A stretch of DNA of 48,306 nucleotides from a virus. The first letter of the stretch is position 1, and each line of letters opens with the position of its first letter. The notes below the pieces were generated by a model. It did no database searches and was not told the origin of the DNA. It was given only the letters and a program-made list of their open reading frames with translations. Below, piece by piece: positions 6,357-23,136 of the stretch. The stretch covers positions 1 through 48,306 of IMG/VR virus record IMGVR_UViG_3300001528_000120; one strand, given 5' to 3'. The position numbers and the translations under genes are program-made.

Positions 6357-6420
6357 CATGAACTGGTTTATTTGGTAATGTTACCCTCTCCACCAAAACA
6401 TTGGCAGAGAGGGCTAGGTC

Positions 6421-6823: not shown

Positions 6824-7103
6824 GCTTGCCAAACCCCCTCTCACGAGCACGGGCAGCCAGCTCGGCTCTCTGCTCGTCTGTAAGCTGGCGTGGACGGCGT
6901 ACTTTAACCCACTTCTTCGGTACTTCAAACGTGAGACCGCCATTGAGGTTATCTTCCAAAGCAATACACTTACTCTGCGGGTCACTTGCCAGTTCCCGAA
7001 GGTAATTTGACATCTTACGGTTATAGGTAAAGACACGCGCTGTAGAGTCTTGCTCGTTGAAGCAAATGATGGTCTCTCGCTCTTGGTTGGTAAGGTACGG
7101 CAT
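6816..7103 (-). CDS. Hypothetical protein
   Basis: 95-aa ORF MPYLTNQERETIICFNEQ... tightly coupled to its neighbours. Confidence 0.6.
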   Translation of the reverse strand: MPYLTNQERETIICFNEQDSTARVFTYNRKMSNYLRELASDPQSKCIALEDNLNGGLTFEVPKKWVKVRRPRQLTDEQRAELAARARERGFGKHV

Positions 7104-7384
7104 CAGATAGCACCTCCAAACATAGGCGGCTGGTTTTCCTTCTCAAGCTCCAAGAGGTACTGTGCGTACCACTCAGCCTTATCCAGATCGGTCTGGTTCT
7201 GCGTGGTGTTGTACCGATACCGGTACTTAAACACGTTGCAGCGGCAGAAGGCTGCCACATCAGACTTTCCAAACAGCAGGCACATCTGGTCGATGCACTC
7301 CATGCCACCCTGCTCGTTGTAGTGAGCGGGGTGGTTGACCTTTTCATCGTAGACCTTCTGTGCGTCTGCTTCCTCGTCAGTCAT
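7103..7384 (-). CDS. DUF3310-like protein
   Basis: Motif VNHPAHYN...GMECID, which I recognise as typical of the DUF3310 family. The ATG at 7384 overlaps the nrdD stop. Confidence 0.55.
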   Translation of the reverse strand: MTDEEADAQKVYDEKVNHPAHYNEQGGMECIDQMCLLFGKSDVAAFCRCNVFKYRYRYNTTQNQTDLDKAEWYAQYLLELEKENQPPMFGGAI

Positions 7385-9817: not shown

Positions 9818-10429
9818 CATTTCGTTCTGGACTGTTTGCAATGAGATGGCAGCCATAGTAGCAGCGGACTCGATGCGCTTTGCGCCACGATTGGCAGCAT
9901 GGTTGGCACGGAAACCAGTCAGCACCTTGTCGATAGGATGCTGTAAGCAGTTCACGGCACGCATGGCGTAGTAGTCCAAGTCATGTACGTGGATGATGTT
10001 GTCCTTCATAGCCTGCAACACTTCGTCTGACAGCAGGTTTTCTTTGGCGTACTGCTGTGAAGCAATGCTACCAAACTTGTACATCATGCCCGCAGGAGTG
10101 TAAGCATTCATATTGGCATTGTCTCTGGACAGGTTACTTCCCTTTACGTCCACAATCTGAGAGATCAGGATGTTGGCATCACGACCACGCATCTTGTTTC
10201 GATGGTCACGATACTTGATATACCTTTTTGCGACATCCGGTTCGTACTCCATAAGAGCACGTTCCACGTTGTCCTGAATCTCCTCTACCTCGATGTCTCC
10301 ACTGACTCTGAGAGAGATTTCATCAGCTACCTTCTTGGCTGTGTGCTCAGTCGCACCTGCTTTCTGGCACGCTACCACAATCTTGGTGGGGTCAAATTCG
10401 ACCCTTGCACCATCGCGCTTAATTACCAT
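9809..10429 (-). CDS. nrdD: Anaerobic ribonucleoside-triphosphate reductase, 5' exon (ATP-cone plus N-terminal part)
   Basis: AAGGAGG before the ATG at 10429. MVIKRDGARVEFDPTKI is an ATP-cone. The frame runs into intron stop codons after QNEM. Confidence 0.85.
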   Translation of the reverse strand: MVIKRDGARVEFDPTKIVVACQKAGATEHTAKKVADEISLRVSGDIEVEEIQDNVERALMEYEPDVAKRYIKYRDHRNKMRGRDANILISQIVDVKGSNLSRDNANMNAYTPAGMMYKFGSIASQQYAKENLLSDEVLQAMKDNIIHVHDLDYYAMRAVNCLQHPIDKVLTGFRANHAANRGAKRIESAATMAAISLQTVQNEMYR

Positions 10430-10637
10430 GTGTACCCTCCTTACCAAACATATCATCCAGCAGCTTAATTGCCCGCTGTTCGTCCATCGGGACTCCCAAA
10501 TACTCCACAACTGGTGTTGGGAAACCCATATAATGACCCGTTACGTTGAACTCTACTGAGTAGCAGAGACCAAGCTCCTCTAATCGGTCAACCACACCAC
10601 AGGTCTGTCCTACGTCTTTGTGAATCAAGAACTGCAC
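10419..10637 (-). CDS. Hypothetical protein
   Basis: 72-aa ORF whose stop overlaps the nrdD start. No motif recognised and no CxxxCxxC, so it is not NrdG. Confidence 0.5.
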   Translation of the reverse strand: MQFLIHKDVGQTCGVVDRLEELGLCYSVEFNVTGHYMGFPTPVVEYLGVPMDEQRAIKLLDDMFGKEGTHGN

Positions 10638-10640
10638 TAT

Positions 10641-10976
10641 TTACTCCTTACCCGTCCATGTTGGATAACTGTCTCCAAACTTCTTTGCCATAGCAGCTAC
10701 CTGAATGGCTTCCATAGCCAAGAAAGATGCTCTGCGATAAATCTCTCTAGCAGCGATGACCGCTGTTCCGTTGGAATTGTTCTTCACGCTCTTCCAAAGA
10801 TCGTTGGTGATGCGTTCGCACCCTGCCATGTCGTGCATGGCTTCCTCAACTTCTTCTTTGAGAATCGCGTAGCCCTCGTGGGCAGTGTGAAAGAACTCGC
10901 CATACTCATTTGCTGCTCGTTCCTGCTCGTTCTTCACGAGGTCTGAAACACCGTTTACAATTTCTCTTCCGATCAT
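10641..10976 (-). CDS. Hypothetical all-alpha protein (MazG-like acidic helix motif possible)
   Basis: AAGGAGG before the ATG at 10976. Contains HEGYAILKEEVEEA. Confidence 0.5.
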   Translation of the reverse strand: MIGREIVNGVSDLVKNEQERAANEYGEFFHTAHEGYAILKEEVEEAMHDMAGCERITNDLWKSVKNNSNGTAVIAAREIYRRASFLAMEAIQVAAMAKKFGDSYPTWTGKE

Positions 10977-11496
10977 CGGCTTCCTCCTTGCTTAAATAGC
11001 CCTTTTGCAGCAGTTTCTTCTGCAACTTTCGTTTAATTTCTGATACTCGTTGGTGGGTTATACCAAGTACATCCGCGATTTCTCGCTGACCGTATCCCTG
11101 TGCCAACATTTCAGTTACAACCTTTTCTCTATCACTCATCCAGTCTGGTAATTCAACCGACCACGGATGGTATTCCGGTGCTGCTACAGCCGCGTAGCGG
11201 TCTAGCACTTTGTCATGCATACCGCTAGTCCGTAAGTCAAGCGTGTTATCGAGTGACAGCGGCACGACACCGTCTGGATTATGACGTTTGTTGGTTCTCC
11301 ATGACCTGTAAACCGCCCATCGCATCAGATTTACCAAGTGAGTTTGGTTGTCTTTGACAGTACCTTCGTACTTGTCCTTGGCTTCTGCCAGTGCCAGACA
11401 CATGGTCTGGAACAAGTCCTCATCACCAACATAGTTTGGAAAAAACTTATGCATCGTCCAGCGTACCAGCTTGAGATCATCATCTTTAATTTCCAA
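10906..11496 (-). CDS. Phage-encoded sigma-70-family (ECF-like) sigma factor
   Basis: TTG start 7 nt after AGGAGG. Region-2-like N-terminus and region-4 HTH (MLAQGYGQREIADVLGITHQRVSEIKRKLQKKL). Confidence 0.65.
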   Translation of the reverse strand: MEIKDDDLKLVRWTMHKFFPNYVGDEDLFQTMCLALAEAKDKYEGTVKDNQTHLVNLMRWAVYRSWRTNKRHNPDGVVPLSLDNTLDLRTSGMHDKVLDRYAAVAAPEYHPWSVELPDWMSDREKVVTEMLAQGYGQREIADVLGITHQRVSEIKRKLQKKLLQKGYLSKEEADDRKRNCKRCFRPREERAGTSSK

Positions 11497-11520
11497 GGTA
11501 TTCCTCCTTTCAACATGACC

Positions 11521-11566
11521 AGTATACTACCCTATGGGGTATTTTTCCATTCGCAAAATAACCAAA
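11521..11566 (-). promoter_or_regulatory. Conserved 46-nt promoter module, copy P3 (upstream of the sigma gene)
   Basis: Minus strand: TTTGGTTATTTTGCGAAT-GGAAAA-N16-TATACT. The spacer contains the palindrome TACCCcataGGGTA. Confidence 0.55.
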
Positions 11567-11568
11567 CT

Positions 11569-13473
11569 TTACATTGCCGATTTGGTCATTTTGACGTAAT
11601 AACGCTTGCGAGATTTACCCTCTCGCCGCTGCTGAATCTCCAAACCAAAACGTTTACGGATTTGTTTGGAAAACTCAATGTTGGTCACAGGCTGCAAGTT
11701 GTTGGTATAGCAGAACCCCGTGTACTTTTTGTAAACCACGTCAGTCGGGTTATACAGGTATTCTTCTTCCTCCAAATCATCAAAAAACAAGATGATTGGA
11801 TTGTTGGACACCTCAAACTCCTTGATCTCAGACTCCACGATCTCACAGTGTGTAAACGCTTCGTTTGCCAAAATATCTCGCAGGTGGGAAATGCACTTGA
11901 CGATCAATGCTTCAATAACAGGTTCTTCACGCAGCTTGTACTTGATAAACGGGTCAAAATCTGGGTCTTTCTTGGAAAAAGAAGCATTGAACGGGATGAC
12001 AATCATACGATCAACCAGTGCCCCTGTATCCTTACCTCTACCAAGACGTGGTAATGAGTTGGCAGAGAAGTAAAACTTGGCTCTGGAAGTCATTGTGATA
12101 GGCTTCTGGTACTTCCTGTTGACAGTCATAGCTTCACCAGATACAACCTTCTTGAAGATGGCAGTGTTGGACATAAACTCGTCCGAAATATCGTCACCGA
12201 TATTGGCAAGTTTACCTGTGATTTCAGCCGTTTTGAACTCCGAACCAACGTCTGCCAAGTCCAAGTTGGAAACGTTATCATCACCAAGCATGGTACTCAG
12301 CAAGTCCAAGAAAGTGGATTTACCGTTATGCTTATCACCAAGCAGGAAGAACGACTTTCGCAGCTCGTTTCGTCTTAACAGGCTATACGACAACGCTTCG
12401 TACAACAACGCTTCCACGCTTGGATTCTGGCAAGCCAGCTTCTTGATGGTCTTGTCCAGCAATGCTGACTGGGCGTTCGGTCGATAATTGTGCGGAATCT
12501 TGTTGGTGATTACCTTGTCAGGTGTGAAGTCGCTGAACTCGTTGGTGATGATGTTCAGAACACCGTTCTTAAACGCCACGTACTGTACATCAGACTCTTT
12601 GTAGCTGTTCAGACCAATCAGAGGGAAATACGCCAACACTTCTGCACGCTGGTTTTTCTTGAGGTTCGGGATTTCCTCTACCATTGCAGACTCCAACGCT
12701 TCTTCACCAGACACATAGATACCGTTGCGGTAAATGTGCATGTCTCCATCAATGCGAATGATATGCTTGTTGGCAACCATATATCTGGCAAACGAATCGA
12801 ACAGGAAACCGCCCTTCTCCGTGAAGAACTGCTGTTTGCTGAACGCTTCGTCCCGTGTGATAGTGGCTAGCTCAGACTCACTCAGCTTGTCTTTCAGAAT
12901 ATACTGGTTGATGAGAGAAAGCGTTTGCTTAACCTCTGTGATACTCAGACCAGCCTTTTGCAAGGGGAGTATGTAACTGAACAAGGTTTGGTTGCGCCCA
13001 TCCCCGTCACCAAGACCAACCAAATCAATTTTGGTGGTGACGGGCTTGAGATAAGCAGGGATGGTTTCGTATACCTCAGTGTCATACAACACCTCTCGCA
13101 GCTGACCATCTCGTTTAAGTACCTCATAGCTACAATTACAGCCTGCTTTAATGTCGGCAGTAAGACCGATAGCCAGCTTTTTGTGATTGCCGTTTCTGGC
13201 AATCTGACCGTTATTCCAAAACAAGAAATGCTTACCCCTTGCCGTGCCGATAACCTTACACTTGACCGCAAGTGACTTGACGATACGGAGCAGCGTATCA
13301 GACTGCTCCATGTCATCAATGTCAACCATCACGGCATTATCGTCCAGAACGCCACCATACGAAGGTACTTTCTCTACTGCTTCCAGTGTTAACAGGTCGG
13401 ACGCATCCTTTCCTTTGAAGGGCATCAGTGACCTTTTACCGTTTACTGGGATATATCCTTTGTACAATGACAT
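11569..13473 (-). CDS. Primase-helicase (prim-pol N-terminal domain plus D5/P4-type NTPase)
   Basis: 634 aa. AVMVDIDD acidic motif at the N-terminus and Walker A LLGDKHNGKST in the C-terminal half. Confidence 0.8.
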   Translation of the reverse strand: MSLYKGYIPVNGKRSLMPFKGKDASDLLTLEAVEKVPSYGGVLDDNAVMVDIDDMEQSDTLLRIVKSLAVKCKVIGTARGKHFLFWNNGQIARNGNHKKLAIGLTADIKAGCNCSYEVLKRDGQLREVLYDTEVYETIPAYLKPVTTKIDLVGLGDGDGRNQTLFSYILPLQKAGLSITEVKQTLSLINQYILKDKLSESELATITRDEAFSKQQFFTEKGGFLFDSFARYMVANKHIIRIDGDMHIYRNGIYVSGEEALESAMVEEIPNLKKNQRAEVLAYFPLIGLNSYKESDVQYVAFKNGVLNIITNEFSDFTPDKVITNKIPHNYRPNAQSALLDKTIKKLACQNPSVEALLYEALSYSLLRRNELRKSFFLLGDKHNGKSTFLDLLSTMLGDDNVSNLDLADVGSEFKTAEITGKLANIGDDISDEFMSNTAIFKKVVSGEAMTVNRKYQKPITMTSRAKFYFSANSLPRLGRGKDTGALVDRMIVIPFNASFSKKDPDFDPFIKYKLREEPVIEALIVKCISHLRDILANEAFTHCEIVESEIKEFEVSNNPIILFFDDLEEEEYLYNPTDVVYKKYTGFCYTNNLQPVTNIEFSKQIRKRFGLEIQQRREGKSRKRYYVKMTKSAM

Positions 13474-13486
13474 TTCTTTTCTCTCC

Positions 13487-14125
13487 TCACTCTGTAATCA
13501 ATTCATGGTATGGAAGGGTTTCCACCCAAGCGCAAAAGTCGCGCCACTCATCCAGCTTGTGATTCCGGCGGGCGTGGTACATGTTCCTCAGGACAGCATA
13601 GTTAAGCTGCACAGTCCGCTTCTGATTGTAGCTGGACGGGAGCAGCTGGACGAGCTGCCACCAAAGCTCTTTCTTTGAGGGCTTTGCATTATCCGTTCGT
13701 TCGTCGTAGTCAATGTAACACTTACGATAGAAGTTCAACTCTTTAATGACACACTCAAGAATGCCCGGCGCGAATAGATGTTCATGACTGAAATCGTCCA
13801 ACGTAAATTCCTTGTCAGCAATCTTGTGCATGGTAGAACAACTATTCGCCACTGTGCCGATCTTGTAAGTGTCGAACTCTTTCCACCAGTACAGCGGCGC
13901 AGTGACGTCTGCCGTCAAGTTAATCATGCGCAAGAACTTTGCATGGTCAGAACCAGCCTTGACCAGCCGTTTCATGAGGGCAAGGTCGTTTTCACCAATG
14001 CTAACGCCGTGGGCGTAATAGGGACTAAAAACGCTGTCGATCTTCTTCCAACTATTCATCGGGTTTCTCATTCCGCGAATAGCCGCTTCCCATCCGTATA
14101 CGGCGGTGTTCTCAATTGCAATCAT
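13487..14125 (-). CDS. ThyX-fold (Thy1-like) protein lacking the canonical RHRxxS...SxRY motif
   Basis: GGGAGG before the ATG at 14125. GSDHAKFLRMINLTADVTAPLYWWKEFDTYKIGTVANSCSTMH aligns by eye to the ThyX core. Confidence 0.5.
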   Translation of the reverse strand: MIAIENTAVYGWEAAIRGMRNPMNSWKKIDSVFSPYYAHGVSIGENDLALMKRLVKAGSDHAKFLRMINLTADVTAPLYWWKEFDTYKIGTVANSCSTMHKIADKEFTLDDFSHEHLFAPGILECVIKELNFYRKCYIDYDERTDNAKPSKKELWWQLVQLLPSSYNQKRTVQLNYAVLRNMYHARRNHKLDEWRDFCAWVETLPYHELITE

Positions 14126-14303
14126 GTGTATCCTCCCACGTAACGTGTGCTTCACTCTCTGCTTCAGCCAAACCCTTGAATAAGTTGGCTTTCATATTGT
14201 AAATAGCACCTTCGTGCTCACACGCTTCATCCTCTGCGATTGTTTCCCGCGTTGCTTCGTTGATGATGTCAGTGATCTCTGCCAAATCATACGTTTTAAT
14301 CAT
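14112..14303 (-). CDS. Hypothetical acidic small protein
   Basis: 63-aa ORF. Its start overlaps the polymerase stop. Confidence 0.5.
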   Translation of the reverse strand: MIKTYDLAEITDIINEATRETIAEDEACEHEGAIYNMKANLFKGLAEAESEAHVTWEDTHDCN

Positions 14304-16006
14304 TACTTTCCTCCCTCAAAATCCTTGATTCGCTTCCATGCCAAATCAATGTAATACTGACGGTCAAGACGATCTGGTACACCCACGTCATCCAAACAAC
14401 CGTTCTCGATAAAGCATTTGTCCGGTGTGTTACCAAACTTGTCTTTCTTCTCACCTTTGTCGGTCAGCTTGCATTTCAGCAAACGACCATCGTTCGGATG
14501 ATTGGAAGCGAAAACTCGATATGCTTTTTGGTCATACCGCTTGTTCTGTGGGGATTCCTCATGTTCCACCCACTCATACTTTGGTGAGAGTTTGACAATC
14601 TTCTGAAACTCAATCAGCTTGTCAACATCCCAAACCGTTCGTTCGGGCAGTACACCTTCGATAAAGTACGCTTTGATTGCTTTGTTGACAATCGGCAAAT
14701 CGTAATCCAGCTTATTCAGCTTTTTTACATATGCACCTTTGCACTCCAACGAGCCGTCTTCAAATACAGCGATGTAGTTGTTCACATCCTTCTGGATAAT
14801 CTTGGTCATACGGTCATAACCAAGACCCATACCAGTGCGATCTTCCCATTCTTTACAGATAGCCTTTACCTCGTCCTCGTTGCCATGCAACTTGACGATC
14901 AGACCATCCGTGTTGGACTGGATGATTTGACAGTGATTCTCCAACCGCTCAATCAGGTCTGTGAGAAGCACTTGACCAAACACACAAACGTTGTTGGCAG
15001 ACCGTGGGTCAAACAACGGATTGAACCTGTCCTTCATAGCACCGTATGTACTGTTCAAAACGATCTTCAATGCGTTGGCACGCGGGTCTTTCTTCTTTTT
15101 GAACTTGATACGGTCATCCTTGATTTCACGATACTTCTCAACGGAAGCACCGCTGCGGCTCATGCAATACTCTGGGTATCGGAGCATCAGAGATGGATAG
15201 TACGAGTTTACGTCCACGTGCAGGAACTCTCCCTCAGCGATATAGTTTGGTATAGCACCATGGATACCGCCTGTTCCATACACGTGCGGTACACCAGCAA
15301 TGGTTGTTTCCAGCTTGGTGTCGTAGTTCCAACCGTTTCGGAAGTAATCAAGTACCTGTGTGTACTTGTCGATGTGCATCGTTGGTGGAAATGAAATAGC
15401 GAACTCGTCTGAGTGATGGCTCTTTCTCGCACCAAGAATGATAGCTGCCAACTGCGCTTTAGACTTACTCATGTAGGTCATCGGCAGGTCAAACATCTTC
15501 ATAAGACCAACATAGCTATCAAACTCGCTCTTACGCTCCATGAAAACTTTGATAGTGGCAAGTACGTCATGTTCATTGTACTTGAGCACTTCATCGATCA
15601 TGTCCTGCGTAAACTCACCATCATAGTCAAAGGGAATCGTGGTCTCACGGATGTCCATGCCACTGAACGCTTCTAGTGTCTTAAGACCGTTAAAACCGAT
15701 CATGCAGTCGAAGCTGTTCACTTTGGCGTTGCGCAGGTCTGTACTAAGCTCCCAACCCTTCCGTTTTTTGTGGATGATCCACTCGTTCATGACCCAAGGG
15801 TCAATTCCGACCAAGATAGCCTTGAGGATGTAATCATCGTAGCTTCTTGAATTGAAGCCGATATACAGTTCTTTGCAGTGATGGTAATGGAACTCTCTCA
15901 ACCGCCAAGGGTTGTTTACAATGACTTCCTTTGTTTTGGTAATCGGATTGATAATAGTAACTGTCCAAAGGTTTTTGAAAACCTCAAAGTCATAGAAATT
16001 GAGCAA
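14303..16006 (-). CDS. Family B DNA polymerase with 3'-5' exonuclease domain (compact, 567 aa)
   Basis: TTG start after AGGAGAG. Exo motifs YDFEV, NSRSYDDYIL and YNEHDV. Pol motifs VDVNSYYPSL, KIVLNSTYG and SNTDGLIV. Confidence 0.8.
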   Translation of the reverse strand: MLNFYDFEVFKNLWTVTIINPITKTKEVIVNNPWRLREFHYHHCKELYIGFNSRSYDDYILKAILVGIDPWVMNEWIIHKKRKGWELSTDLRNAKVNSFDCMIGFNGLKTLEAFSGMDIRETTIPFDYDGEFTQDMIDEVLKYNEHDVLATIKVFMERKSEFDSYVGLMKMFDLPMTYMSKSKAQLAAIILGARKSHHSDEFAISFPPTMHIDKYTQVLDYFRNGWNYDTKLETTIAGVPHVYGTGGIHGAIPNYIAEGEFLHVDVNSYYPSLMLRYPEYCMSRSGASVEKYREIKDDRIKFKKKKDPRANALKIVLNSTYGAMKDRFNPLFDPRSANNVCVFGQVLLTDLIERLENHCQIIQSNTDGLIVKLHGNEDEVKAICKEWEDRTGMGLGYDRMTKIIQKDVNNYIAVFEDGSLECKGAYVKKLNKLDYDLPIVNKAIKAYFIEGVLPERTVWDVDKLIEFQKIVKLSPKYEWVEHEESPQNKRYDQKAYRVFASNHPNDGRLLKCKLTDKGEKKDKFGNTPDKCFIENGCLDDVGVPDRLDRQYYIDLAWKRIKDFEGGK

Positions 16007-16042
16007 TCACGTTCTCTCCTTCCTCGTTCACCCAAAAGATTT

Positions 16043-16066
16043 GGTAGGAGCAGTTACGCTCCTACC
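16043..16066 (-). terminator. Stem-loop terminator after the DUF669 gene
   Basis: 9-bp stem GGTAGGAGC/GCTCCTACC with 6-nt loop and flanking T/A runs on both sides. Confidence 0.6.
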
Positions 16067-16078
16067 ATCTTTTCCAAA

Positions 16079-16549
16079 TCAGAACTTCTGTACAATGTCG
16101 TACTCCTTGAAGCCCTTATCGTTCTCATGGTAAGCAAGCTGGTACTCAGCCTTGCCATCACCAATAGCGTCAAAGACCGCCTTGACGGTTTCCTCGAAGT
16201 GCTCATCGAACTTGACCTCGATACCGGATTCCAGAGAATCAAGCAGCTGGACAGCGTTGCGAATCATGAAAGCAGTAGCGCGAGTACCCTTCGGAGACCA
16301 CAAACGCTTGGTAGCGAACAACAGCTGACCAGCCAGTTCATCGTGGTTGATGATCTTGAACCACACTGCCAGCTGCGGCTTGCCCTGATAGTCACCCTCG
16401 AACGGGCACTCCTCAACGGCGCACTTGGTAACACGGACTTCGTAGTCACCATACGGCACTTCCTTGCGCTCCACGTTGGACGCAGATACGTCAGCAACTT
16501 CTGCTTCGATAGCGGACATGTCTCCGAACATTTCCCAGTTGATAGCCAT
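16079..16549 (-). CDS. DUF669-like protein (putative ssDNA-binding partner of Sak4-type recombinases)
   Basis: 156 aa with motif VPYGDYEVRVTKC...GKPQLAVWFKI. Follows the Sak4-like ATPase gene. Confidence 0.55.
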   Translation of the reverse strand: MAINWEMFGDMSAIEAEVADVSASNVERKEVPYGDYEVRVTKCAVEECPFEGDYQGKPQLAVWFKIINHDELAGQLLFATKRLWSPKGTRATAFMIRNAVQLLDSLESGIEVKFDEHFEETVKAVFDAIGDGKAEYQLAYHENDKGFKEYDIVQKF

Positions 16550-16604
16550 AATAAAAACTCCTTTATTCTTCGTAGGACTTTTCGTCCTCGTTTATTGTGT
16601 CATC

Positions 16605-16650
16605 ATTATAATACCCCGCGGGGCATTTTACAATTGGCAAAATAGCCAAA
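16605..16650 (-). promoter_or_regulatory. Conserved 46-nt promoter module, copy P2
   Basis: Minus strand: TTTGGCTATTTTGCCAAT-TGTAAA-N16-TATAAT. The spacer contains the perfect palindrome CCCCGCGGGG. Confidence 0.6.
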
Positions 16651-16657
16651 AAATAGG

Positions 16658-18190
16658 TTATTTTCCTGTGGATTCTGCTGTATCGAATGCTTCCGACAGT
16701 GCTTCCCATGTAAGAGGAATGGAATCCAGTTTGGTTTTCAGACGCTCGCCACCAAACACCATGTCATCTGCCTTGAACTCGATAGTACGCTCATCACCAT
16801 CAGCGACAACACGACCAACGAGACCAACCATGCCAGCGATCTTGGTGGAGACCTTTTCCTGAATGTTCGGACGGATAGAGGTTGCGCTTTCACCAGACTT
16901 TTTGGTAATGTCGCGGGAAGCGTCCTCGTGAGACAACAGGATGATGTTTTCGTAGTCCAAGTTCATCAGACGGCGAATCTGAGAATAGAACTCAGTGCGC
17001 ACCTTGTCCCATGCGCGGAAATTGTCATCAGATTCATGGGTAATGTGCAGCTTGTCAAACATATACAAACGACAAGACTCGTACAAGTCCTCCAACAAAT
17101 CGACCACAATGGTCTTGAAGGTGTTCTGTTTCTTTTCCAGTTCGTCCAGCGTTTCCTTGAACACTGCCCAAGCCAGCTTCTTCTTGACGATGCGACCAGT
17201 GACTTCCACATCATCTTTGATTGGCACGAAAGGTGCGGTGACGTAGACAGCGTTGCCGTCCGTGTTCAGCATCAGCGGGTCTGGCGCGTGGTCAGCCAGC
17301 GTGGTCTTGCCCGTAAACGGTCTGCCATACAACCAGATGGTACGCTTGGTGGGCTTCTCAGCGGTTCTTCTCTCGTTCTTCGGTAATACCATATCGTTCC
17401 TCCTATAAATCATGTAGTCAGTCTCACCGTTGGACTGACAATACTCTTTGAAATCACACCAATCACAAAGACGGGTTGGGTTCTTTGGAAAATCAGCACC
17501 CTTCTCGGCTTCGGTGAGAAATGCTGTTTTAGCTTGGAACTGCCGCACGGCTTCTGGCTTATACGGCACTTCTAGCACTGTAATGTCTTTGGACTCCATC
17601 TCCGACAACAACCGCTGTCGGAAGGTCATCGGAGTCTCCGTCCGTTTCTGCCGAATCATTGTTTTCGGCACAAAGACGTATTGTAAACGACCAATCTTGA
17701 TGTCTGGTCGCATTTGGGTTAAGTAGTGGGCGTAAATAGACAGCTGCGGGGAGTCTCTATAGCCGTCCACGTTGTTTGAAAACTTGAAGTCGTAAATGTC
17801 GTAGACAGTATCGTGGTGATGTGAGTAATCATCGTGGACAATAGTTCTGTGGCATTTTACTAACAGGTCGATGTAGCCAATAAAGTCATCGGTCTTTACT
17901 TCAATTTCATGCTCACCTTTTGGTAGGAGAGCCTTAACCTTTGGAATCCAGTATTCCAGCTGGATTTGCCAAGCAATGTGGCGGTCATCAATTACATAGT
18001 AGTGTGACAGGTATTCCCGCACACCTTCTTCTACAGTGGTCTCAATACCCTTGTGGAGTCCAAGACCAAGATAGAGAGCGTTGTTCGGCTCTTGGTCGGG
18101 CAAGGTAGTCAGCTTGTCCTTGTACTTGAGCTTGTACTTATACGGACACTTGGTGGCGCACTCAACGCGGCTATGGCTGAATCTGGTCAT
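16658..18190 (-). CDS. Fusion of a Cas4-like PD-(D/E)XK nuclease (Fe-S Cys motif) with a Sak4-like AAA_24 ATPase
   Basis: N-terminal CATKCPYKY plus CDWCDFKEYC (C...CX2CX5C). C-terminal half carries Walker A LYGRPFTGKTTLA. Confidence 0.7.
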   Translation of the reverse strand: MTRFSHSRVECATKCPYKYKLKYKDKLTTLPDQEPNNALYLGLGLHKGIETTVEEGVREYLSHYYVIDDRHIAWQIQLEYWIPKVKALLPKGEHEIEVKTDDFIGYIDLLVKCHRTIVHDDYSHHHDTVYDIYDFKFSNNVDGYRDSPQLSIYAHYLTQMRPDIKIGRLQYVFVPKTMIRQKRTETPMTFRQRLLSEMESKDITVLEVPYKPEAVRQFQAKTAFLTEAEKGADFPKNPTRLCDWCDFKEYCQSNGETDYMIYRRNDMVLPKNERRTAEKPTKRTIWLYGRPFTGKTTLADHAPDPLMLNTDGNAVYVTAPFVPIKDDVEVTGRIVKKKLAWAVFKETLDELEKKQNTFKTIVVDLLEDLYESCRLYMFDKLHITHESDDNFRAWDKVRTEFYSQIRRLMNLDYENIILLSHEDASRDITKKSGESATSIRPNIQEKVSTKIAGMVGLVGRVVADGDERTIEFKADDMVFGGERLKTKLDSIPLTWEALSEAFDTAESTGK

Positions 18191-18417
18191 GGTACTGAAT
18201 CACCCTCCAACACAATCACTGCGTCAGGGTAAATAACTACTTCCGCGTCCCCATTAAAAGACCCAACACCAGTACCATCAAGTTTGACAGCATTGACCTC
18301 TAGTCCATCAAGCGAGTGAGTGGCAATCCTGAGCCACAACTCGCCGCTGCTCTCGAAAACTTCGCTAACCAATACACGTTGGAACGGTTCGTAATTCATC
18401 GTGTGCTGTACTTTCAT
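18187..18417 (-). CDS. Hypothetical protein
   Basis: 76-aa ORF with AGGAGG ribosome-binding site and ATGA-type coupling on both sides. Confidence 0.5.
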   Translation of the reverse strand: MKVQHTMNYEPFQRVLVSEVFESSGELWLRIATHSLDGLEVNAVKLDGTGVGSFNGDAEVVIYPDAVIVLEGDSVP

Positions 18418-18878
18418 GGTGTACCTCCTAACAGTTCCACAATTCGCTCACCAATCTTGTCTTTGGTAGCAAACTCCCACTGCACACCATACTTATCTCG
18501 CATGGCATACATAATCTTGGCAAGGGTACGTCCTTTGGTTGCTACCTTGGATACCCGTAGTCGTGGGTTATACCAACCAAACACGCCAGCTAAATCCTTA
18601 ATCTTCGGGTCTTGTACTAAGATGACCAGTTGGATACCAGCGTCCTTGGCGCGTTCACACTCCCGCCTGAATCGGTCGTGTTGTTTGGTCACATTACCAA
18701 CAACCTCTTGTAAATCCTGCTTGGTGTCGATGCACACGGACTGGTTTGTTGGTAAAGTATAGTCACCACAGTAGAGTTTCGTTCGCTCTACGGTGTAGCC
18801 CAAATCTTCCAACTGCTTGTCTATATGTGCATTCTTGCTTGGCTTCTGACGTGTATCACAAAGAATTATAGTATTCAT
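18414..18878 (-). CDS. ERCC4-type nuclease (Holliday-junction resolvase-like)
   Basis: DTRQK...LYCGDYTL...CIDTKQDLQEVVGNV resembles the ERCC4 D..E/GDY/ERK pattern. Confidence 0.55.
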   Translation of the reverse strand: MNTIILCDTRQKPSKNAHIDKQLEDLGYTVERTKLYCGDYTLPTNQSVCIDTKQDLQEVVGNVTKQHDRFRRECERAKDAGIQLVILVQDPKIKDLAGVFGWYNPRLRVSKVATKGRTLAKIMYAMRDKYGVQWEFATKDKIGERIVELLGGTP

Positions 18879-19069
18879 TCGGCAAACTCCTCGTATCTGT
18901 CCAAGCAGTCCAAGCAGATATTCTCGCCACGAATGCTGTAGTATCGCTCGTCATGCTCAAGTGCTCTACCACAAACGTCACAGTACGTGTGGTACGTGGT
19001 TTCAGGCATAAAAGTCGGATAACCAGTGCGCTCCATTGCGGTGATGTCTGGATGTTCGATGTTGTACAT
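18875..19069 (-). CDS. Small zinc-ribbon protein
   Basis: 64 aa with CDVCG...CLDC. GAGGAGG ribosome-binding site. Confidence 0.5.
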   Translation of the reverse strand: MYNIEHPDITAMERTGYPTFMPETTYHTYCDVCGRALEHDERYYSIRGENICLDCLDRYEEFAE

Positions 19070-19081
19070 AGTCCAACCTCC

Positions 19082-19399
19082 TCAGACGATTCGTGCGAGT
19101 GATCTACAACCAATCACACGCTTGGTTTCGTCACGTACCAACTCATTCGGGAACAGTACGTCCTTGCGCTCTGGGCAAGCCTGTGCTACCAAACAAGAGG
19201 TGATGTAAAGCACATTATTCTCAGGCTCAGGCAAGTCCTTGATGTCGGTATAGGAAGTGTGGCTGATTGGCACGCCGTCCAGCATACCAAGGTGTTCCAC
19301 GTTGGCGGTTACTCTGGCAACGATGCCAGACGGCGGGATGACCACCGTTCTGTCATCTGCCAAGATCGTCACCGAATGTGGTGTCAGGTTTTTAATCAT
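19082..19399 (-). CDS. Hypothetical protein
   Basis: 105-aa ORF with AAAGGAG ribosome-binding site. First gene after promoter module P1. Confidence 0.55.
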   Translation of the reverse strand: MIKNLTPHSVTILADDRTVVIPPSGIVARVTANVEHLGMLDGVPISHTSYTDIKDLPEPENNVLYITSCLVAQACPERKDVLFPNELVRDETKRVIGCRSLARIV

Positions 19400-19431
19400 T
19401 TGTTGTTCGCTCCTTTCTTTAGCGTGACTAC

Positions 19432-19477
19432 AGTATAATACCGTGCGGGGTATTTTACAATTCGCATTTTCACCAAA
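19432..19477 (-). promoter_or_regulatory. Conserved 46-nt promoter module, copy P1
   Basis: Minus strand: TTTGGTGAAAATGCGAAT-TGTAAA-N16-TATACT (TTGTAA-N17-TATACT). The spacer contains ATACC..GGTAT. Confidence 0.6.
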
Positions 19478-19489
19478 TAATCAGAAAAT

Positions 19490-19669
19490 TTATTGGTGAT
19501 TATGTACAGGATTCATGTACTGCTCGAATCGCTCCCGTGAAATCCAGTAACGATACGAGTTTGGTGACATTTCCACCGCCACGCCAAACGGGAACTTGTT
19601 CTGGCGCAACCCCATTCTCAGGAATTGGATAGAAACTCCCATTGCTTTGGCAGCTTCCTCAACGCTCAT
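19490..19669 (-). CDS. 59-aa HTH_17/excisionase-like DNA-binding protein, below the ORF-track cut-off
   Basis: Hand translation: MSVEEAAKAMGVSIQFLRMGLRQNKFPFGVAVEMSPNSYRYWISRERFEQYMNPVHNHQ. Overlaps the upstream stop by 11 nt. Confidence 0.55.
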   Translation of the reverse strand: MSVEEAAKAMGVSIQFLRMGLRQNKFPFGVAVEMSPNSYRYWISRERFEQYMNPVHNHQ

Positions 19670-19877
19670 CTTCTGCGAAAAAGACGTTGCCCATCAAACG
19701 TACACCCAGCCCACATGCTTCTCCGATCTTCCAGCACTCATCAAGAGTCGGAAGTTGGTAGCCACGAAGGATACGGGTCACTTTGCACGGATGCCAACCC
19801 ATTCGTTCGCCAAACGCTTTACGTGTACCAAACTTACCCAGTACATAGTCGTTCAGAGCTTTGTAATCAACGTGCAT
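19659..19877 (-). CDS. Small HTH (XRE/Cro-like) protein
   Basis: AAGGAGG before the ATG at 19877. MHVDYKALNDYVLGKFGTRKAFGERMGWHPCKVTRILRG... Confidence 0.5.
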   Translation of the reverse strand: MHVDYKALNDYVLGKFGTRKAFGERMGWHPCKVTRILRGYQLPTLDECWKIGEACGLGVRLMGNVFFAEDER

Positions 19878-19889
19878 TTTTCTTCCTCC

Positions 19890-19906
19890 TTTCATTTGAA
19901 ATGAAA
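19890..19906. promoter_or_regulatory. 17-bp palindrome TTTCATTT-G-AAATGAAA just upstream of the HTH gene ribosome-binding site (operator candidate)
   Basis: 8-bp perfect arms. A second inverted repeat, GCATCGACC (19925-19933) / GGTCGATGC (19969-19977), lies further upstream. Confidence 0.45.
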
Positions 19907-19995
19907 ACTTACGCAATAAAAATTGCATCGACCAAAAAATCAGAGCGAACCACGCTCATATAAAACGGTCGATGCGATAGTTTTCCAAAACAGGC

Positions 19996-20064
19996 GGGGA
20001 GCAGACGGAGTTAAACCGCCATCTAAGGTCATGAGCCTTTACTCTGTCGTTGAGCTATGCTCCC
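19996..20064 (-). tRNA. Non-canonical tRNA-like element with CAT anticodon loop
   Basis: 7-bp acceptor GGGAGCA/TGCTCCC, loop CTCATGA and T-arm GGCGG/CCGTC. Lacks D-loop GG and T-loop C56, has an A-A mismatch in the anticodon stem, and no encoded CCA. Confidence 0.35.
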
Positions 20065-20142
20065 AAACGAACCTCCCCCGAAGGAGCACGCTTGCAATCG
20101 TGTTGGTTTCCGGTTCAACCGGACTTACCAAGAGGTTTATAC

Positions 20143-20218
20143 TGGCACTCTGGGGTGGACTCGAACCACCGACCGTCTGAGTAACAATCAGATGCGCTAC
20201 CAACTGCGCCACCAGAGT
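20143..20218 (-). tRNA. tRNA-Asn: tRNA-Asn (GTT)
   Basis: Hand-folded cloverleaf: ACTCTGG/CCAGAGT acceptor, GCGC D-stem, TCTGA-TTGTTAC-TCAGA, GGTGG-TTCGAGT-CCACC, encoded CCA. 76 nt. Confidence 0.85.
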
Positions 20219-20224
20219 ATGTTT

Positions 20225-20255
20225 GGTGAGGGATGATATGTCAGCATCCCTCACC
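20225..20255. other. 11-bp perfect stem-loop between the fibre-like operon and tRNA-Asn
   Basis: GGTGAGGGATG-atatgtcag-CATCCCTCACC. No U-run follows on the minus strand, so it may be a processing or stability element rather than a classical terminator. Confidence 0.6.
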
Positions 20256-20284
20256 GAGAGAAAAAAGAGAAAGGAGGTGATACA

Positions 20285-20749
20285 TCACCAAGCTACCCAA
20301 TTGTACGTGCCTACCAAAATAGGTGATGTTTGGGTAACTGTAGAAAGAGAGAATCCGTTTGAGCCGAAAGCGAGGTGGTCATTGGCATTGCCAATCGTAA
20401 AATCCGACCACGTTGTTCTGCTGGTTGAAGCGGTCTTAATGTAGTCCACAACACCAGAAAACAGGTCGGTGCGTGCCCAACCAAACACTCCACGTGCGGA
20501 GGTTGTGGTCTCGCTTTCGGAATAGAAAACCAACACATTGGTTGGCTTGAAGCCAGTGTTAACCGACTTCGTTTGGGCGGTCTGCGTCATGGTGAAAGAA
20601 CCAGTCTTGACAGACGGTATCTTGAGCACCAATGCCGCCAGCGCATCCAAGGTAGTGTTGGACGGCGGTGTTACGCCCTGTGCCGTTAACGCAGCTACCA
20701 AATCATGTTTGGCAGTGGTCAGGCGGTTTATTTCCGACTGTACACTCAT
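20285..20749 (-). CDS. Fibre-like small structural protein (paralogous N-terminus to the 20753-21019 product)
   Basis: 154 aa. N-terminus MSVQSEINRLTTAKHDLVAALTAQGV is parallel to MSIASEITRISNQRDTLRTNLIGLGL. Confidence 0.55.
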   Translation of the reverse strand: MSVQSEINRLTTAKHDLVAALTAQGVTPPSNTTLDALAALVLKIPSVKTGSFTMTQTAQTKSVNTGFKPTNVLVFYSESETTTSARGVFGWARTDLFSGVVDYIKTASTSRTTWSDFTIGNANDHLAFGSNGFSLSTVTQTSPILVGTYNWVAW

Positions 20750-20752
20750 GGC

Positions 20753-21019
20753 TTAAATCGCCGCAAGCGCAGTCTCAATCGAGTTGGACAGTGTGACTTT
20801 ACCAGTGCCGGAATGCAGTCCTGCCGGAACAGTGTAGCTCTCAGCCGTCATACCATCAATGGTTGCTGCGACAGCACCACGGTTTTCGATATTACCAACA
20901 GCAGATACGCAATCTTCCAGCTTGGCGGTTGACTCAGTTACCAAACCAAGACCAATGAGATTGGTGCGCAGTGTGTCACGCTGGTTACTGATTCGAGTGA
21001 TCTCAGATGCAATACTCAT
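20753..21019 (-). CDS. Fibre-like small protein carrying the SYTVPxGxHxGxGKV motif
   Basis: AAGGAG ribosome-binding site. SYTVPAGLHSGTGKVTLSN matches SYTVPQGYHDGSGKVAIS in the 46079-46651 product. Confidence 0.55.
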   Translation of the reverse strand: MSIASEITRISNQRDTLRTNLIGLGLVTESTAKLEDCVSAVGNIENRGAVAATIDGMTAESYTVPAGLHSGTGKVTLSNSIETALAAI

Positions 21020-21031
21020 AAAACAAGCTCC

Positions 21032-21193
21032 TTATATTTCACGGAGCAGCGTTTCAACTTCTCCCGCTAGTTGATACACTGCGTTGGACGATACTGGCAA
21101 CGGGTTGTCCGACTCGACCAGCTCTGTAATATCCACTGATATAACACCGTTGTCGATGATGATGCCCATTCCAGCTTCCAGTTCTGTTGCCAT
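21032..21193 (-). CDS. 53-aa fibre-motif protein, below the ORF-track cut-off
   Basis: Hand translation: MATELEAGMGIIIDNGVISVDITELVESDNPLPVSSNAVYQLAGEVETLLREI. Starts 17 nt after tRNA-Lys. Confidence 0.45.
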   Translation of the reverse strand: MATELEAGMGIIIDNGVISVDITELVESDNPLPVSSNAVYQLAGEVETLLREI

Positions 21194-21209
21194 GGTAAAA
21201 CCTCACTTG

Positions 21210-21285
21210 TGGTGCGCCATGCGGGGCTTGAACCCGCGACCCCCAGATTAAAAGTCTGGTACTCTACCAACTGAGTTAATGACAC
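21210..21285 (-). tRNA. tRNA-Lys: tRNA-Lys (TTT)
   Basis: Hand-folded cloverleaf: GTGTCAT/ATGGCGC acceptor (2 G-U pairs), ACTC/GAGT D-stem, CCAGA-CTTTTAA-TCTGG, GCGGG-TTCAAGC-CCCGC, encoded CCA. 76 nt. Confidence 0.85.
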
Positions 21286-21370: not shown

Positions 21371-21417
21371 ATTATACGAAAAAACGTTCGGTTTCTCTAG
21401 GTGTAATAATCACCAAA
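21371..21417 (-). promoter_or_regulatory. Degenerate sixth copy of the promoter module, upstream of tRNA-Lys and the early operon
   Basis: Minus strand: TTTGGTGATTATTACACCTAGAGAA-N16-TATAAT. Shifted by 1 nt relative to P1-P5 and lacks GCGAAT. Confidence 0.4.
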
Positions 21418-21440
21418 AATGAAAGAATTTTTTTGACATG

Positions 21441-21449
21441 GTATAATAA
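21441..21449 (+). promoter_or_regulatory. Extended -10 element TGgTATAAT on the plus strand, facing array B and the integrase
   Basis: tttttgacatggtataataag. The TTGACA here is too close to act as its -35. Confidence 0.35.
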
Positions 21450-21488
21450 GAGTGACGGTTACTACAAGTCACACTACCAAAACAGGTG

Positions 21489-21950
21489 GGTGTCACACAC
21501 TTTTGGCGGTTGTCACGCACTTTTCGGCTGTCACGCAAAAGTATGTGACACTTTGGTTTGAACTTTTTTGGTCAATAAGCCGATGCTTTGTGGTGTTTAC
21601 AGCTGTTTTGGTGAACTTTCAAAGGCACTTAGTTGAAATCTGTCACAGCGTCACAGACTTTTCTATATAAAAAACTTTCTATATATATAACGATGTTGCA
21701 GCAACAACATGTCAAAAAATATAGTACAATATAAGTCTGTGACATCTGTGACAAAATTTCCGGCACAGACGAAATCGCCAAAAACGCTGATTTTGCCCTG
21801 TTTTTGCAACTTTTTAGGGCAAAACGTGTCACACACTTTGCAAAAGTACGTGACAAAGTACGTGACAAGTGCGTGACACCTTCCAAAGTTTTTGACCATT
21901 TTTTCCGAGAGTTTGTATAGCTTGCACAAAAATGCATAAATATGAATGCT
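21489..21950. repeat. Array B: inverted, colinear, diverged copy of array A (5209-5657)
   Basis: 20-nt exact match: 5250-5269 ttggaaggtgtcacgcactt equals the reverse complement of 21867-21886. TGTCACACACTTTT at 21491 and TGTCACGCACTTTT at 21511 (20-bp spacing). Quasi-palindrome at 21641-21753. Confidence 0.85.
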
Positions 21951-22045
21951 GTATACAAACCCGCTGTGACACCTAGTAAACGGTCGGTTACTAACCTTTC
22001 ACCTATGAATCTATAGTAAAACACCTATGAAGGAGCGATGACATC

Positions 22046-23068
22046 ATGAAGAATCCGAACGGCTACGGCTCTGTCATTTGTTTGGATAAGACTGGGAAGC
22101 GGCGCAGGAAGCCGTGGGCAGTCAGAATCACAGTTGGTTTTGACGAGTCAGGCAAGCAGATCACCAAATATCTCGGTTACTACAAGTCGCAGAAGGAAGC
22201 AGCCATTGCGCTGGCGCAGTATCACATGGTTGGTTTGGACGTAGACGCAACCAAGCTCACCTTCGAGGACGTGTTCGAGGAGTGGCTTAAATCCACCGAG
22301 CACCGGATGACACCGCAGAACCAAGGCTCATACAGAGCAGCTTTCAGGCTTGTTGGTAGCTTGGCTAAGAAGCGGTTTAAGGACATCAAGTCCAATCACC
22401 TCCAAACTGCTTTGGATAGTGTGAAGCGTCAGTACAACACCAAGAAAAAGGTGCGCTCTATGCTCAAACAAGTTTGGGACTACGGGGTGAAAAACGACTA
22501 CGTGTTGAAGAACTACGCTGTTGGGTTGGAGCTTGATGGCAAACAGGAAGATGTCGGCAAGGTGTTCACAGCGCAAGAAATCAAAATGCTTTGGCAGCAC
22601 GCCGATGACTATCACGTCCAACTTGTTTTGGTGATGATCTACACTGGCGTTCGGGCAAACGAGCTGTTAAAAATAAACACGGCGAACACGTTTTTATCTG
22701 ACCACTACTTCATAACTGGTTCTAAGACGGACGCGGGGAAAGATAGGATAATTCCTATACATGACGCTATCCTGCCTTTCGTCCACAACATCATGGTTAA
22801 CCACCATCATTTGGCAGAATTTGACGGGCACGGAGTCCATTACAACACCCTGTATAAATGGTTTGGTGATGTCATGAAGCGGTTTGGTTTCGACCACAAA
22901 TTGCACGATACACGGAAAACAACCGTGTCACTGCTACACTCAGCCGAAGTACCAATCGAGACAATCCGATTTATCGTTGGTCACGCTCAACAGGGTATCA
23001 CCGCCCAAGTCTACTTGAAGAAAACCGCAGCGGAACTGGTGGCTGCCATCAACAAAATACCAGTTTAA
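22046..23068 (+). CDS. int: Tyrosine integrase (site-specific recombinase, phage integrase family)
   Basis: 340 aa with GAAGGAG ribosome-binding site. AP2-like arm-binding N-terminus. Catalytic pattern GVRANEL...HDTRKT...GHAQQGITAQVY. The only plus-strand gene. Confidence 0.9.
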   Translation: MKNPNGYGSVICLDKTGKRRRKPWAVRITVGFDESGKQITKYLGYYKSQKEAAIALAQYHMVGLDVDATKLTFEDVFEEWLKSTEHRMTPQNQGSYRAAFRLVGSLAKKRFKDIKSNHLQTALDSVKRQYNTKKKVRSMLKQVWDYGVKNDYVLKNYAVGLELDGKQEDVGKVFTAQEIKMLWQHADDYHVQLVLVMIYTGVRANELLKINTANTFLSDHYFITGSKTDAGKDRIIPIHDAILPFVHNIMVNHHHLAEFDGHGVHYNTLYKWFGDVMKRFGFDHKLHDTRKTTVSLLHSAEVPIETIRFIVGHAQQGITAQVYLKKTAAELVAAINKIPV

Positions 23069-23136
23069 TTTTAGAGCATTTTGGTATACTACGTGTATAT
23101 TACCGTGCCCAACACTACCGAATATGGGACAACAAA

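Follow-up and report, generated by a model that had tools for sequence, protein, structure and literature searches.

Two diverged, inverted copies of a box array bracket the early module of a tailed-phage genome and may serve as a two-site origin

Introduction

The closest described counterparts of the locus reported here are phage systems with paired cis regions. In the satellite phage P4, for which coordinates were taken from the GenBank annotation, the alpha operon (9030-4636) lies between ori (9086-9809) and crr (4291-4590), and both of these regions contain an 8-9-bp word, GGTGAACAG, in both orientations at ~10-bp spacing, adjoining an AT-rich stretch. In SPP1, two similarly organised regions, oriL and oriR, are located ~13 kb apart and are bound by a single protein, gp38 (PMC6316719, PMC3485210). 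Fork stalling at oriR has been proposed to lead to recombination-dependent replication involving a nuclease, a single-strand annealing protein (SSAP), SSB, and a resolvase (PMC6316719, PMC3485210). Here, we describe two arrays of short repeated boxes, A and B, that bracket the early/replication operon in IMG/VR virus record IMGVR_UViG_3300001528_000120 (positions 1 to 48,306; this whole stretch of 48,306 nucleotides is referred to as the window). The initial annotation of the window, made from the sequence alone, knew of no described equivalent of such a pair within a tailed-phage genome. The P4 and SPP1 precedents show that equivalents have been described and that the present pair is a variant.

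Results

Two inverted paralogous arrays

In a self-blastn comparison of the window, positions 5249-5634 match the minus strand at 21887-21491 with 63.8% identity over 417 columns (E 3.1e-25), and a MAFFT alignment of array A with the reverse complement of array B is colinear, block after block, in agreement with the initial annotation. The pair contains one exact inverted match of 21/21 (5249-5269 and 21867-21887), one base longer than the 20/20 match first noted at 5250-5269. The local alignment score is 83 for the inverted and 33 for the direct orientation, compared to 12.0 +/- 1.3 for shuffled sequences. The inverted alignment retains a score of 32 after masking of the boxes as N, ~15 standard deviations above shuffles (11.2 +/- 1.4, maximum 17), and spans GTTGCAGCAAC, TATATATAGAAAGTTTTTTATATA, and AAAAGTTCAAA. 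Because the masked arrays still align, the similarity is not limited to the boxes, and B is a diverged inverted copy of A, i.e. a true inverted paralogue, rather than a convergent cluster of sites. The boxes are highly concentrated in the two regions. Allowing at most one mismatch, AAGTRYGTGACA has 17 matches in the window (1.66 expected), all of them inside 5258-5654 or 21491-21878, and 23 of the 55 GTGACA hexamers fall within the two ~450-bp regions.

Both arrays are built on a shared plan (Table 1): a distal box cluster (element I), an AT-rich palindrome with inverted box doublets (element II), and an inward phased run of boxes (element III). The box is a ~12-bp word with the core GTGACA / GGTGTCAC, present in both orientations and in 11-12 copies per array. 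Doublets are spaced 9-12 bp and runs are phased at 20 bp; the spacing within the inward triplet (20/20 bp in A, 20/18 bp in B) is as originally read. Element II is ~125 bp long, has box doublets as its arms, and carries a small GTTG-N3-CAAC palindrome and the conserved TATATATAGAAAGTTTTTTATATA in its core. Folded as DNA, it reaches -25.9 kcal/mol in A (z -6.8) and -24.2 kcal/mol in B (z -5.9), and it forms a long hairpin in both; among all 70-nt windows of the genome, the second and third highest AT contents are found in the A and B copies, respectively. Overall, array A is 63% AT, compared to 52% for the genome. A-III abuts a stop codon and has no promoter beyond it; on the inward side of B, ~20 bp separate the last box from the first predicted early promoter element and ~70-90 bp separate it from the conserved TAGAGA-17-TATAAT unit. 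A sigma-70 promoter reading of the palindrome was discarded, since the spacing is inconsistent across orthologues. Open reading frames (ORFs) across the arrays, e.g. 21629-22024, were likewise set aside: the similarity between relatives tracks the DNA boxes, and the indels between A and B are not multiples of three.

Database searches with the locus returned little. A megablast of the 4-24 kb region against INPHARED gave no match, Rfam has no family in either array, and an exact-sequence look-up of a 59-aa protein found no record. In IMG/VR, a scan with a single 14-mer box gave chance single matches only and a two-box pattern gave 0 matches. The two-box pattern had 5 matches in metagenome contigs, none sharing a protein with the window, and these were treated as unrelated iteron arrays.

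Conservation of the arrays

The close relatives compared (L151/L153, L154, L155, L156/L157, and L158; primase-helicase 73-90% identical) come from pig-gut and other assemblies. L151, L154, and L156 (primase 73-89% identical) have GTGACA arrays at both junctions, always with elements I and II. In L155, the A copy is seen and in L158 the B copy, the other junction being beyond the contig or the fetched locus in each. Thus, relatives carry both copies, and they do so in the same inverted layout where this can be scored (inverted against direct: 48 vs 22 in L151, 55 vs 21 in L156; the orientation in L154 is not resolvable). An alignment of nine array sequences is colinear through elements I-III, and L154_B has four extra direct box copies. 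Orthologous arrays (A-A 184-279, B-B 150-204) outscore paralogous ones (A-B 26-83), with orthologue scores of 210, 184, and 204 set against the paralogue score of 83, which places the duplication before the split of the window, L151, and L154 and implies that the copies have been kept separately without homogenisation.

The surroundings of the arrays are syntenic in the relatives, with Gp10_C/lysis genes on one side and two small membrane proteins followed by a ~450-aa gene on the other, and the bracketed segment has a constant orientation relative to these flanks in all loci examined. Inside the bracket, genes have been exchanged singly; PolB of L156 is only 43% identical to that of the window, its neighbours 68-74%. 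The enclosed module does not move as a unit.

Neither cI nor integrase is found in L151, L154, and L156, where B is located between lysis/Gp10_C genes (with a terminator) and the early promoter. The integrase, initially taken as the outward partner of B, is an insertion specific to the window. In L158, the order is integrase, B array, cI, switch, tRNAs, Cro-like gene, and early genes, with the B array (8411-8773) exactly between the stop of cI (8782-9153) and the integrase; this is probably the ancestral temperate layout. The window has an integrase and no cI, 59 bp (21449-21508) replacing the 401-bp cI segment of L158 (8781-9182). The genomes without cI and integrase may be virulent derivatives of a temperate lineage. 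As the arrays persist without cI or integrase, they are neither cI operators nor integrase arm sites, and the retention of B in three lineages that have neither gene places its function in lytic growth rather than in lysogeny control. Arm-type (attP) sites are also contradicted by the integrase itself, the N-terminal arm-binding domain of which is conserved between the window and L008, L021, and L007 despite differing boxes. Repressor operators of the OL/OR type were rejected because the window is without cI, the boxes are kept without cI, and promoter elements start ~20 bp past the last box.

Among distant relatives (primase-helicase 33-56% identical), the L008 group has long AT-rich hairpins at the same two junctions, i.e. 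at cI/integrase and ahead of a RinA-like late regulator. Their frame, TTCTTTTATATAGG...CCTATAAAAGAA, is recognisably related to element II. The stem word is TCAGAATATCGT in L008, L021, L006, and L143. L003 and L007 deviate from this word, and the two hairpins of L007, left and right, are not alike either. A hairpin-forming element is found at these junctions in every family member (z -3.4 to -9.5). One symmetric array, with lineage-specific boxes around an AT-rich centre, is located at the early/late junction in L015, L010/L011/L023, L013, L016, and L022. The family as a whole is thus characterised by a palindromic element, AT-rich and flanked by boxes, where the replication module ends, and the GTGACA and L008 groups show a further copy where the module starts. 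As a separate observation, the genes of the integrase and the RinA-like regulator in the L008 group each have one copy of the hairpin word, TCAGAATATCGTAAC, 9-13 bp before the start codon, oriented alike relative to the gene; the word may be an operator common to both or exert control at the RNA level.

Candidate box-binding proteins

The leading candidate for a box-binding protein is the P4-alpha-like primase-helicase, with Pfam matches to D5_N (1e-7), DUF5906 (5.7e-20), Pox_D5 (2.4e-6), and RFX_DNA_binding (7.4e-5). Its C-terminal helix SNIEFSKQIRKRF and wing KQRR..RKRYY are conserved in 6/6 GTGACA genomes and differ in the L008 group, and L010 and L013 share the box CTTGAACA as well as the primase helix ANFSKELN(K/R)RL. 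The alternative candidate is the 72-aa Cro-like helix-turn-helix (HTH) protein, the recognition helix of which (KVTRI..GYQ.P) does not vary among the four genomes aligned, those of the window, L151, L154, and L156; the orthologue in L158 (P0124) is 53% identical. The co-variation of box and helix fits the primase helix and the Cro-like HTH alike and is contradicted inside the L008 group.

The Cro-like protein has a second potential target. An early-promoter family consists of TTTGG-N8-CSAAT, a 16-bp TTGG..CCAA palindrome over the -35 element, followed by N17 and TATAAT. It has 6 copies against 0.25 expected, all co-oriented with transcription, and the same unit forms P_R of L158. The TTGG-N8-CCAA palindrome is likely the Cro/cI operator. 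The cI operator of the L008 group, GTATC-N7-GATAC, is distinct from the hairpin box.

Other proteins were considered as binders and dismissed. Four GTGACA genomes encode no cI, and the cI of the L008 group has the operator just mentioned; the Xis-like p6058 protein is absent from L151 and L154; and the integrase has an N-terminus that is conserved across box types, and arrays exist without it. The ECF sigma factor is unlikely, as its HTH differs in L156 despite identical boxes, and a candidate ECF-type promoter, TTTTGG-N-CCGTCA, was dropped as a single occurrence. A search of IMG/VR with the HTH alignment gave no match.

A different repeat, the TGCAAA(T) array, consists of 8-12 direct heptamers in one orientation with 7/14/21-bp phasing, follows a terminator, and is conserved family-wide. 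It is also found in L003, L001, L012, L143, L153, and L157, and in the L008 group it follows the gene of the RinA-like regulator. It could be an activator site for late promoters. In the window, two plus-strand sigma-70 promoters, one perfect (2453-2481; TTGACA-17-TATAAT with TG, 12/12) and one matching 11/12 (2522-2550), read into this array and stop at a bidirectional terminator (2767-2810). This unit could produce a ~250-nt repeat-rich antisense or non-coding RNA, or provide transcriptional activation of an origin.

Genome context

The window is a complete tailed-phage genome of ~48.2 kb, bases 1-75 being identical to 48232-48306 (terminal direct repeat). Nearly all genes are on the minus strand, with the tyrosine integrase as the sole plus-strand gene. 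The circular order is B, early operon, A, about eight small genes, the packaging/structural/lysis genes, the integrase, and back to B. As first described, the arrays bracket the early module with their inward runs facing it, and beyond them are two genes transcribed outwards, the integrase and a 90-aa hydrophobic ORF starting at 5125 (minus).

Some labels and features of the enclosed operon deserve mention. The ECF-type sigma factor matches TIGR02937 with 49.5 bits, exceeding the cut-off. The label "ThyX-like" for the protein at 13487-14155 could not be upheld, the window protein having no Pfam match and the sole support being a faint Thy1 match of the L158 orthologue, and "SSB-like" for 16079-16549 gained no support from a Pfam scan. 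At 16658-18190, a Cas4-like PD-(D/E)XK nuclease and a Sak4-like AAA_24 ATPase form a single 510-aa protein in the GTGACA group; the two genes are separate but adjacent in L008, L021, and L007. The nrdD gene (9809-10510 / 7377-8981) is split by a homing-endonuclease ORF at 9058-9720, and the type and position of such ORFs in nrdD vary among close relatives (extra HNH ORFs in L151, LAGLIDADG in L154 and L155). At the head of the operon, between tRNA-Lys and tRNA-Asn, three small ORFs (20285-21193; 53, 88, and 154 aa) encode tail-fibre-like peptides with a weak DUF7483 match; L151 has none at that position.

Elsewhere in the genome, a 25-nt motif, GTATACTACGTGTATA(C/T), at 19-43 (= 48250-48274) inside the 75-bp terminal repeat recurs with 84% identity at 23084-23108, 16 bp past the integrase stop codon, and may be related to attP or a packaging site. 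The most AT-rich 70-nt window of the genome (363-432; 87% AT) is non-coding, is located between the contig junction and the small terminase region, and is a possible cos/pac neighbourhood. TTTTGGTRR occurs at 29 sites genome-wide, e.g. 2756, 2983, 21474, and 46885, against 2.5 expected; many are intragenic and 21 of the 29 are on the coding (minus) strand. This oriented, over-represented word is possibly Chi-like. In the structural gene region, a cis-regulatory RNA motif of Rfam, GP20-b, is matched at 40827-40888 (minus) with 56.8 bits against a gathering score of 36.2.

Table 1. Features of the arrays and their surroundings. Positions refer to the window unless a relative is named.
Feature	Position	Strand	Description
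Array A	5209-5657	+	Order I, II, III (inward); between last early-gene stop (5660) and start of the 5125 membrane-protein gene
A-I distal cluster	5249-5318	+	TTTGGAAGG, then minus boxes 5258-5269 and 5270-5281 facing plus core 5301-5306 and 5307-5318
A-II imperfect palindrome	5371-5497	+	Doublets 5377-5382/5385-5396 and 5474-5485/5489-5494 flank 79% AT core 5397-5473, which holds GTTGCAGCAAC and TATATATAGAAAAGTTTTTTATATA
A-III inward run	5568-5654	+	AAAAGTTCAAA, inverted box 5585-5596, direct boxes 5603, 5623, 5643 (20-bp phasing)
Array B	21489-21950	-	Order I, II, III (inward); between integrase start (22046) and early promoter/tRNA-Lys (21285)
B-I distal cluster	21827-21887	-	TTTGGAAGG and boxes 21867-21878, 21856-21867, 21844-21855 facing 21827-21838
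Lone box core beyond B-I	21966-21971		
B-II imperfect palindrome	21635-21760	-	Cores 21739/21748 and 21641 (plus GTGACG variant) flank 78% AT core 21660-21732, which holds GTTGCTGCAAC and TATATATAGAAAGTTTTTTATATA
B-III inward run	21491-21567	-	AAAAGTTCAAA, inverted box 21539-21550, cores 21529, 21511, 21491
Early promoter unit past B	21371-21418	-	TTTTTGGTGA...TAGAGA-17-TATAAT; member of repeated promoter/operator family
TTGG-N8-CCAA promoter copies	4590-4607, 6339-6356, 11549-11566, 14328-14345, 16633-16650, 19460-19477	-	Degenerate copy at ~21371-21418
Enclosed early/replication operon	5660-21285	-	From tRNA-Lys (21285) to 86-aa ORF ending 5660, every gene minus strand; in minus-strand order three tRNAs, 72-aa XRE/Cro-type HTH, Xis-like (excisionase-like) HTH, ERCC4 nuclease, PD-(D/E)XK + AAA_24 (Cas4-Sak4) fusion, PolB, D5_N/DUF5906/Pox_D5 primase-helicase, ECF-type sigma factor, then nrdD interrupted by HNH/NUMOD4 ORF
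P4-alpha-like primase-helicase	11569-13473	-	D5_N, DUF5906 (superfamily 3 (SF3) helicase), C-terminal Pox_D5/RFX winged helix
72-aa XRE/Cro-type HTH protein	19659-19877	-	First protein-coding early-operon gene in integrase-less relatives
Tyrosine integrase	22046-23068	+	Insertion relative to L151, L154, L156; outside conserved array pair
Small terminase subunit	47427-47855		
TGCAAA(T) array	2640-2745; L008 18836-19010; L021 20305-20452; L006 17338-17447; L156 20965-21061	- (window)	
TCAGAATATCGTAAC copies	L008 1985-2004 and 18213-18232; L021 1633 and 1677; L143 11662		

Discussion

From the inverted duplication, the box grammar, the AT-rich palindrome, the fact that relatives have kept both arrays, and the domain architecture that the primase-helicase shares with alpha we infer a replication role for the arrays, although we hold it with less than even confidence. 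The reading that we tentatively favour is that A and B are origin-type sites, similar to P4 ori/crr or SPP1 oriL/oriR, that serve the P4-alpha-like primase-helicase of the phage. In this model, the phage initiator would load on the box clusters, most likely via the C-terminal winged helix of the primase-helicase, the AT-rich core of element II would melt, and the SF3 helicase/primase together with PolB would begin synthesis. The second copy could cooperate through looping, as crr, or stay a protein-bound barrier, as SPP1 oriR, at which theta replication would turn into recombination-driven concatemer synthesis by means of the Cas4-Sak4 fusion and the ERCC4 nuclease. One stronger version, which we consider improbable, is that one of the two oppositely oriented sites, both acting through one phage protein, fires while the second site, or looping between the two, halts forks at either border of the 16-kb module, and that the resulting break is turned by the fusion and the ERCC4 nuclease into concatemer synthesis by recombination. 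If true, this uncultivated family of gut Firmicutes phages would have a built-in, orientation-specific fork trap around its own replication genes.

Several observations weigh against an origin served by the primase-helicase. Within the L008 group, the hairpin box varies (L008, L003, L007) but the primase helix does not, from which it follows that the binder there probably is not the primase. L009, with a similar primase helix, carries TCTGCAAAG repeats, and the TGCAAA(T) array could be the true iteron set of the primase. The boxes co-occur just as closely with the Cro-like HTH, which is present in all GTGACA genomes with a known left side and absent elsewhere, as they do with the primase. Element III is absent from L154_B and both L156 arrays and thus is dispensable. 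L015, the only distant relative whose stretch reaches the lysogeny switch, shows one array only. DnaA boxes occur at chance level in the window, and GC skew is flat or monotonic and uninformative because all genes are co-oriented.

As the main alternative, the same boxes could act on transcription, as protein-bound boundaries or regulatory arrays (roadblocks, terminators/antiterminators, or long-range operators) at the ends of two transcription units. The protein coating them would be the 72-aa Cro-like HTH protein, another phage DNA-binding factor, or the ECF sigma factor; we regard this as unlikely, though by no means negligible. The units would diverge from the switch, cI towards int and cro with the early genes towards the late genes, and this would account for the inverted orientation of the arrays, as for lambda nutL/nutR or OL/OR. 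The position of B in L158 agrees with such a layout, in that a transcript from the switch would enter both arrays in the order III, II, I. The L008-group hairpins, situated between cI and integrase and before the RinA-like regulator, with single boxes 9-13 bp upstream of starts, point in the same direction, as do the distribution of the Cro-like HTH with its invariant helix and the terminator-like hairpins inside the arrays (5336-5354 in A). However, the B boxes are kept in the three lineages without cI and integrase, where incoming transcription enters from the opposite side, and promoter elements are found ~20 bp and ~70-90 bp past the last box of B and not at all beyond A-III. The TTGG-N8-CCAA palindrome over the early-promoter -35 is a better operator for an XRE dimer, the cI operator of the L008 group is not the hairpin box, and L156 combines unchanged boxes with a different HTH in its ECF sigma factor. 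Lambda OL/OR and nutL/nutR are also mirror-oriented around a central region, and B of L158 follows cI like a left-arm element. They differ in that the arrays here persist without cI, are 16 kb apart, and have no word copy overlapping the conserved early-promoter unit, and in that the likely cI/Cro operator is another palindrome. A purely structural role, in which the palindromes act as RNA hairpins for RNase III-type processing or stability, or as DNA cruciforms, and the word is mere stem material, would explain why every family member has a long hairpin at these junctions and why palindromy and the TTCTTTTATATAGG...CCTATAAAAGAA frame are kept while the hairpin core varies between genomes and between the L007 copies. 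We find it improbable, since one and the same 12-mer is used in all stems of both arrays in 6/6 GTGACA genomes without free compensatory change, the direct repeats at 20-22-bp phasing (A-III, B-III, and the extra copies in L154_B) cannot pair mutually, no U-tract follows the stems, and Rfam is empty here.

The initial annotation had offered two interpretations, terminal inverted repeats (TIRs) as in PolB-carrying self-synthesising elements and duplicated inverted origins. The latter remains the best available reading; the former finds no support. An inverted pair around a polymerase, a primase-helicase, and recombination genes, with a tyrosine recombinase adjoining B, does recall the termini of a mobile cassette for replication, or sites across which the 15.8-kb segment could invert, and casposons, polintons, pipolins, and phi29-like genomes likewise have inverted repeats around a segment with a B-family polymerase. 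In the window, however, the repeats are not at the termini of a genome or element, and the polymerase is not of the protein-primed (phi29/PRD1/casposon) type. PolB of the window, the gene of which adjoins that of the primase-helicase, matches RNA/DNA-primed B-family enzymes (Sulfolobus PolB1 1s5j at 2.9e-10, archaeal PolB, E. coli Pol II) and nothing of the phi29 type, Pfam DNA_pol_B_2 (0.0058) falling under the cut-off, and no terminal protein or casposase was found among the window proteins. The arms are diverged, only 64% identical with indels, and the arrays are internal, with syntenic flanks and genes replaced individually between them; there is no sign of mobility. The pair is kept without an integrase in L151, L154, and L156, and the arm-binding domain of the integrase is conserved in the L008 group despite different boxes. 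An invertible segment is contradicted by the one orientation in all loci examined and by the presence of just one 21-bp exact match between the arms. Taken together, we consider mobile-element ends or inversion substrates very improbable.

If the arrays are indeed a two-site origin, the logic of P4 and SPP1 would extend to widespread uncultivated gut phages with PolB and an alpha-like primase-helicase, found in pig and other animal gut metagenomes and with Firmicutes-like hosts, and short DNA words would be available for initiator-binding tests. The comparative series, with GTGACA arrays at one end, hairpins built on other boxes in between, and single symmetric arrays at the other end, could show the co-evolution of initiators or regulators with their sites. 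The arrays also mark the boundaries of the early module and as such are landmarks for annotating these genomes.

The resemblance to P4 extends to the initiator, with a D5_N-DUF5906-Pox_D5 architecture in both P4 alpha and the window protein (BLASTP E 6e-9; helicase regions only 21% identical), and to the cis regions, of which there are two in both systems, with the same short word in both orientations and AT-rich DNA. In both, they flank the primase-helicase operon, one upstream and one immediately downstream, and an integrase is encoded near one of the sites. In P4, however, the sites are ~4.7 kb apart, compared to 15.8 kb here, crr consists of two 120-bp direct repeats and is unlike ori outside the octamers, and alpha has an N-terminal Toprim and Zn-ribbon, neither of which was detected in the window primase. 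On the P4 model, the initiator would bind the boxes, and both arrays would be needed in cis.

SPP1, a ~44-kb siphovirus of Firmicutes, likewise has repeats and an AT-rich unwinding element in each region (PMC6316719), and the window phage encodes analogous recombination functions in the Cas4-Sak4 fusion and the ERCC4 nuclease. For initiation and synthesis, SPP1 relies on gp38, on a DnaB-type helicase and the corresponding loader, and on the polymerases of the host, whereas the window phage encodes an SF3 primase-helicase and a PolB; scans of its early proteins with Pfam, PHROG, and NCBIfam found no DnaB-type helicase or loader family. Furthermore, oriL lies inside gene 38, while both arrays here are intergenic, and sequence similarity to the SPP1 regions would not be expected. 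What distinguishes the present pair is that two colinear 450-bp paralogues, each with the three-part layout and a large palindrome, are found in mirror orientation 15.8 kb apart.

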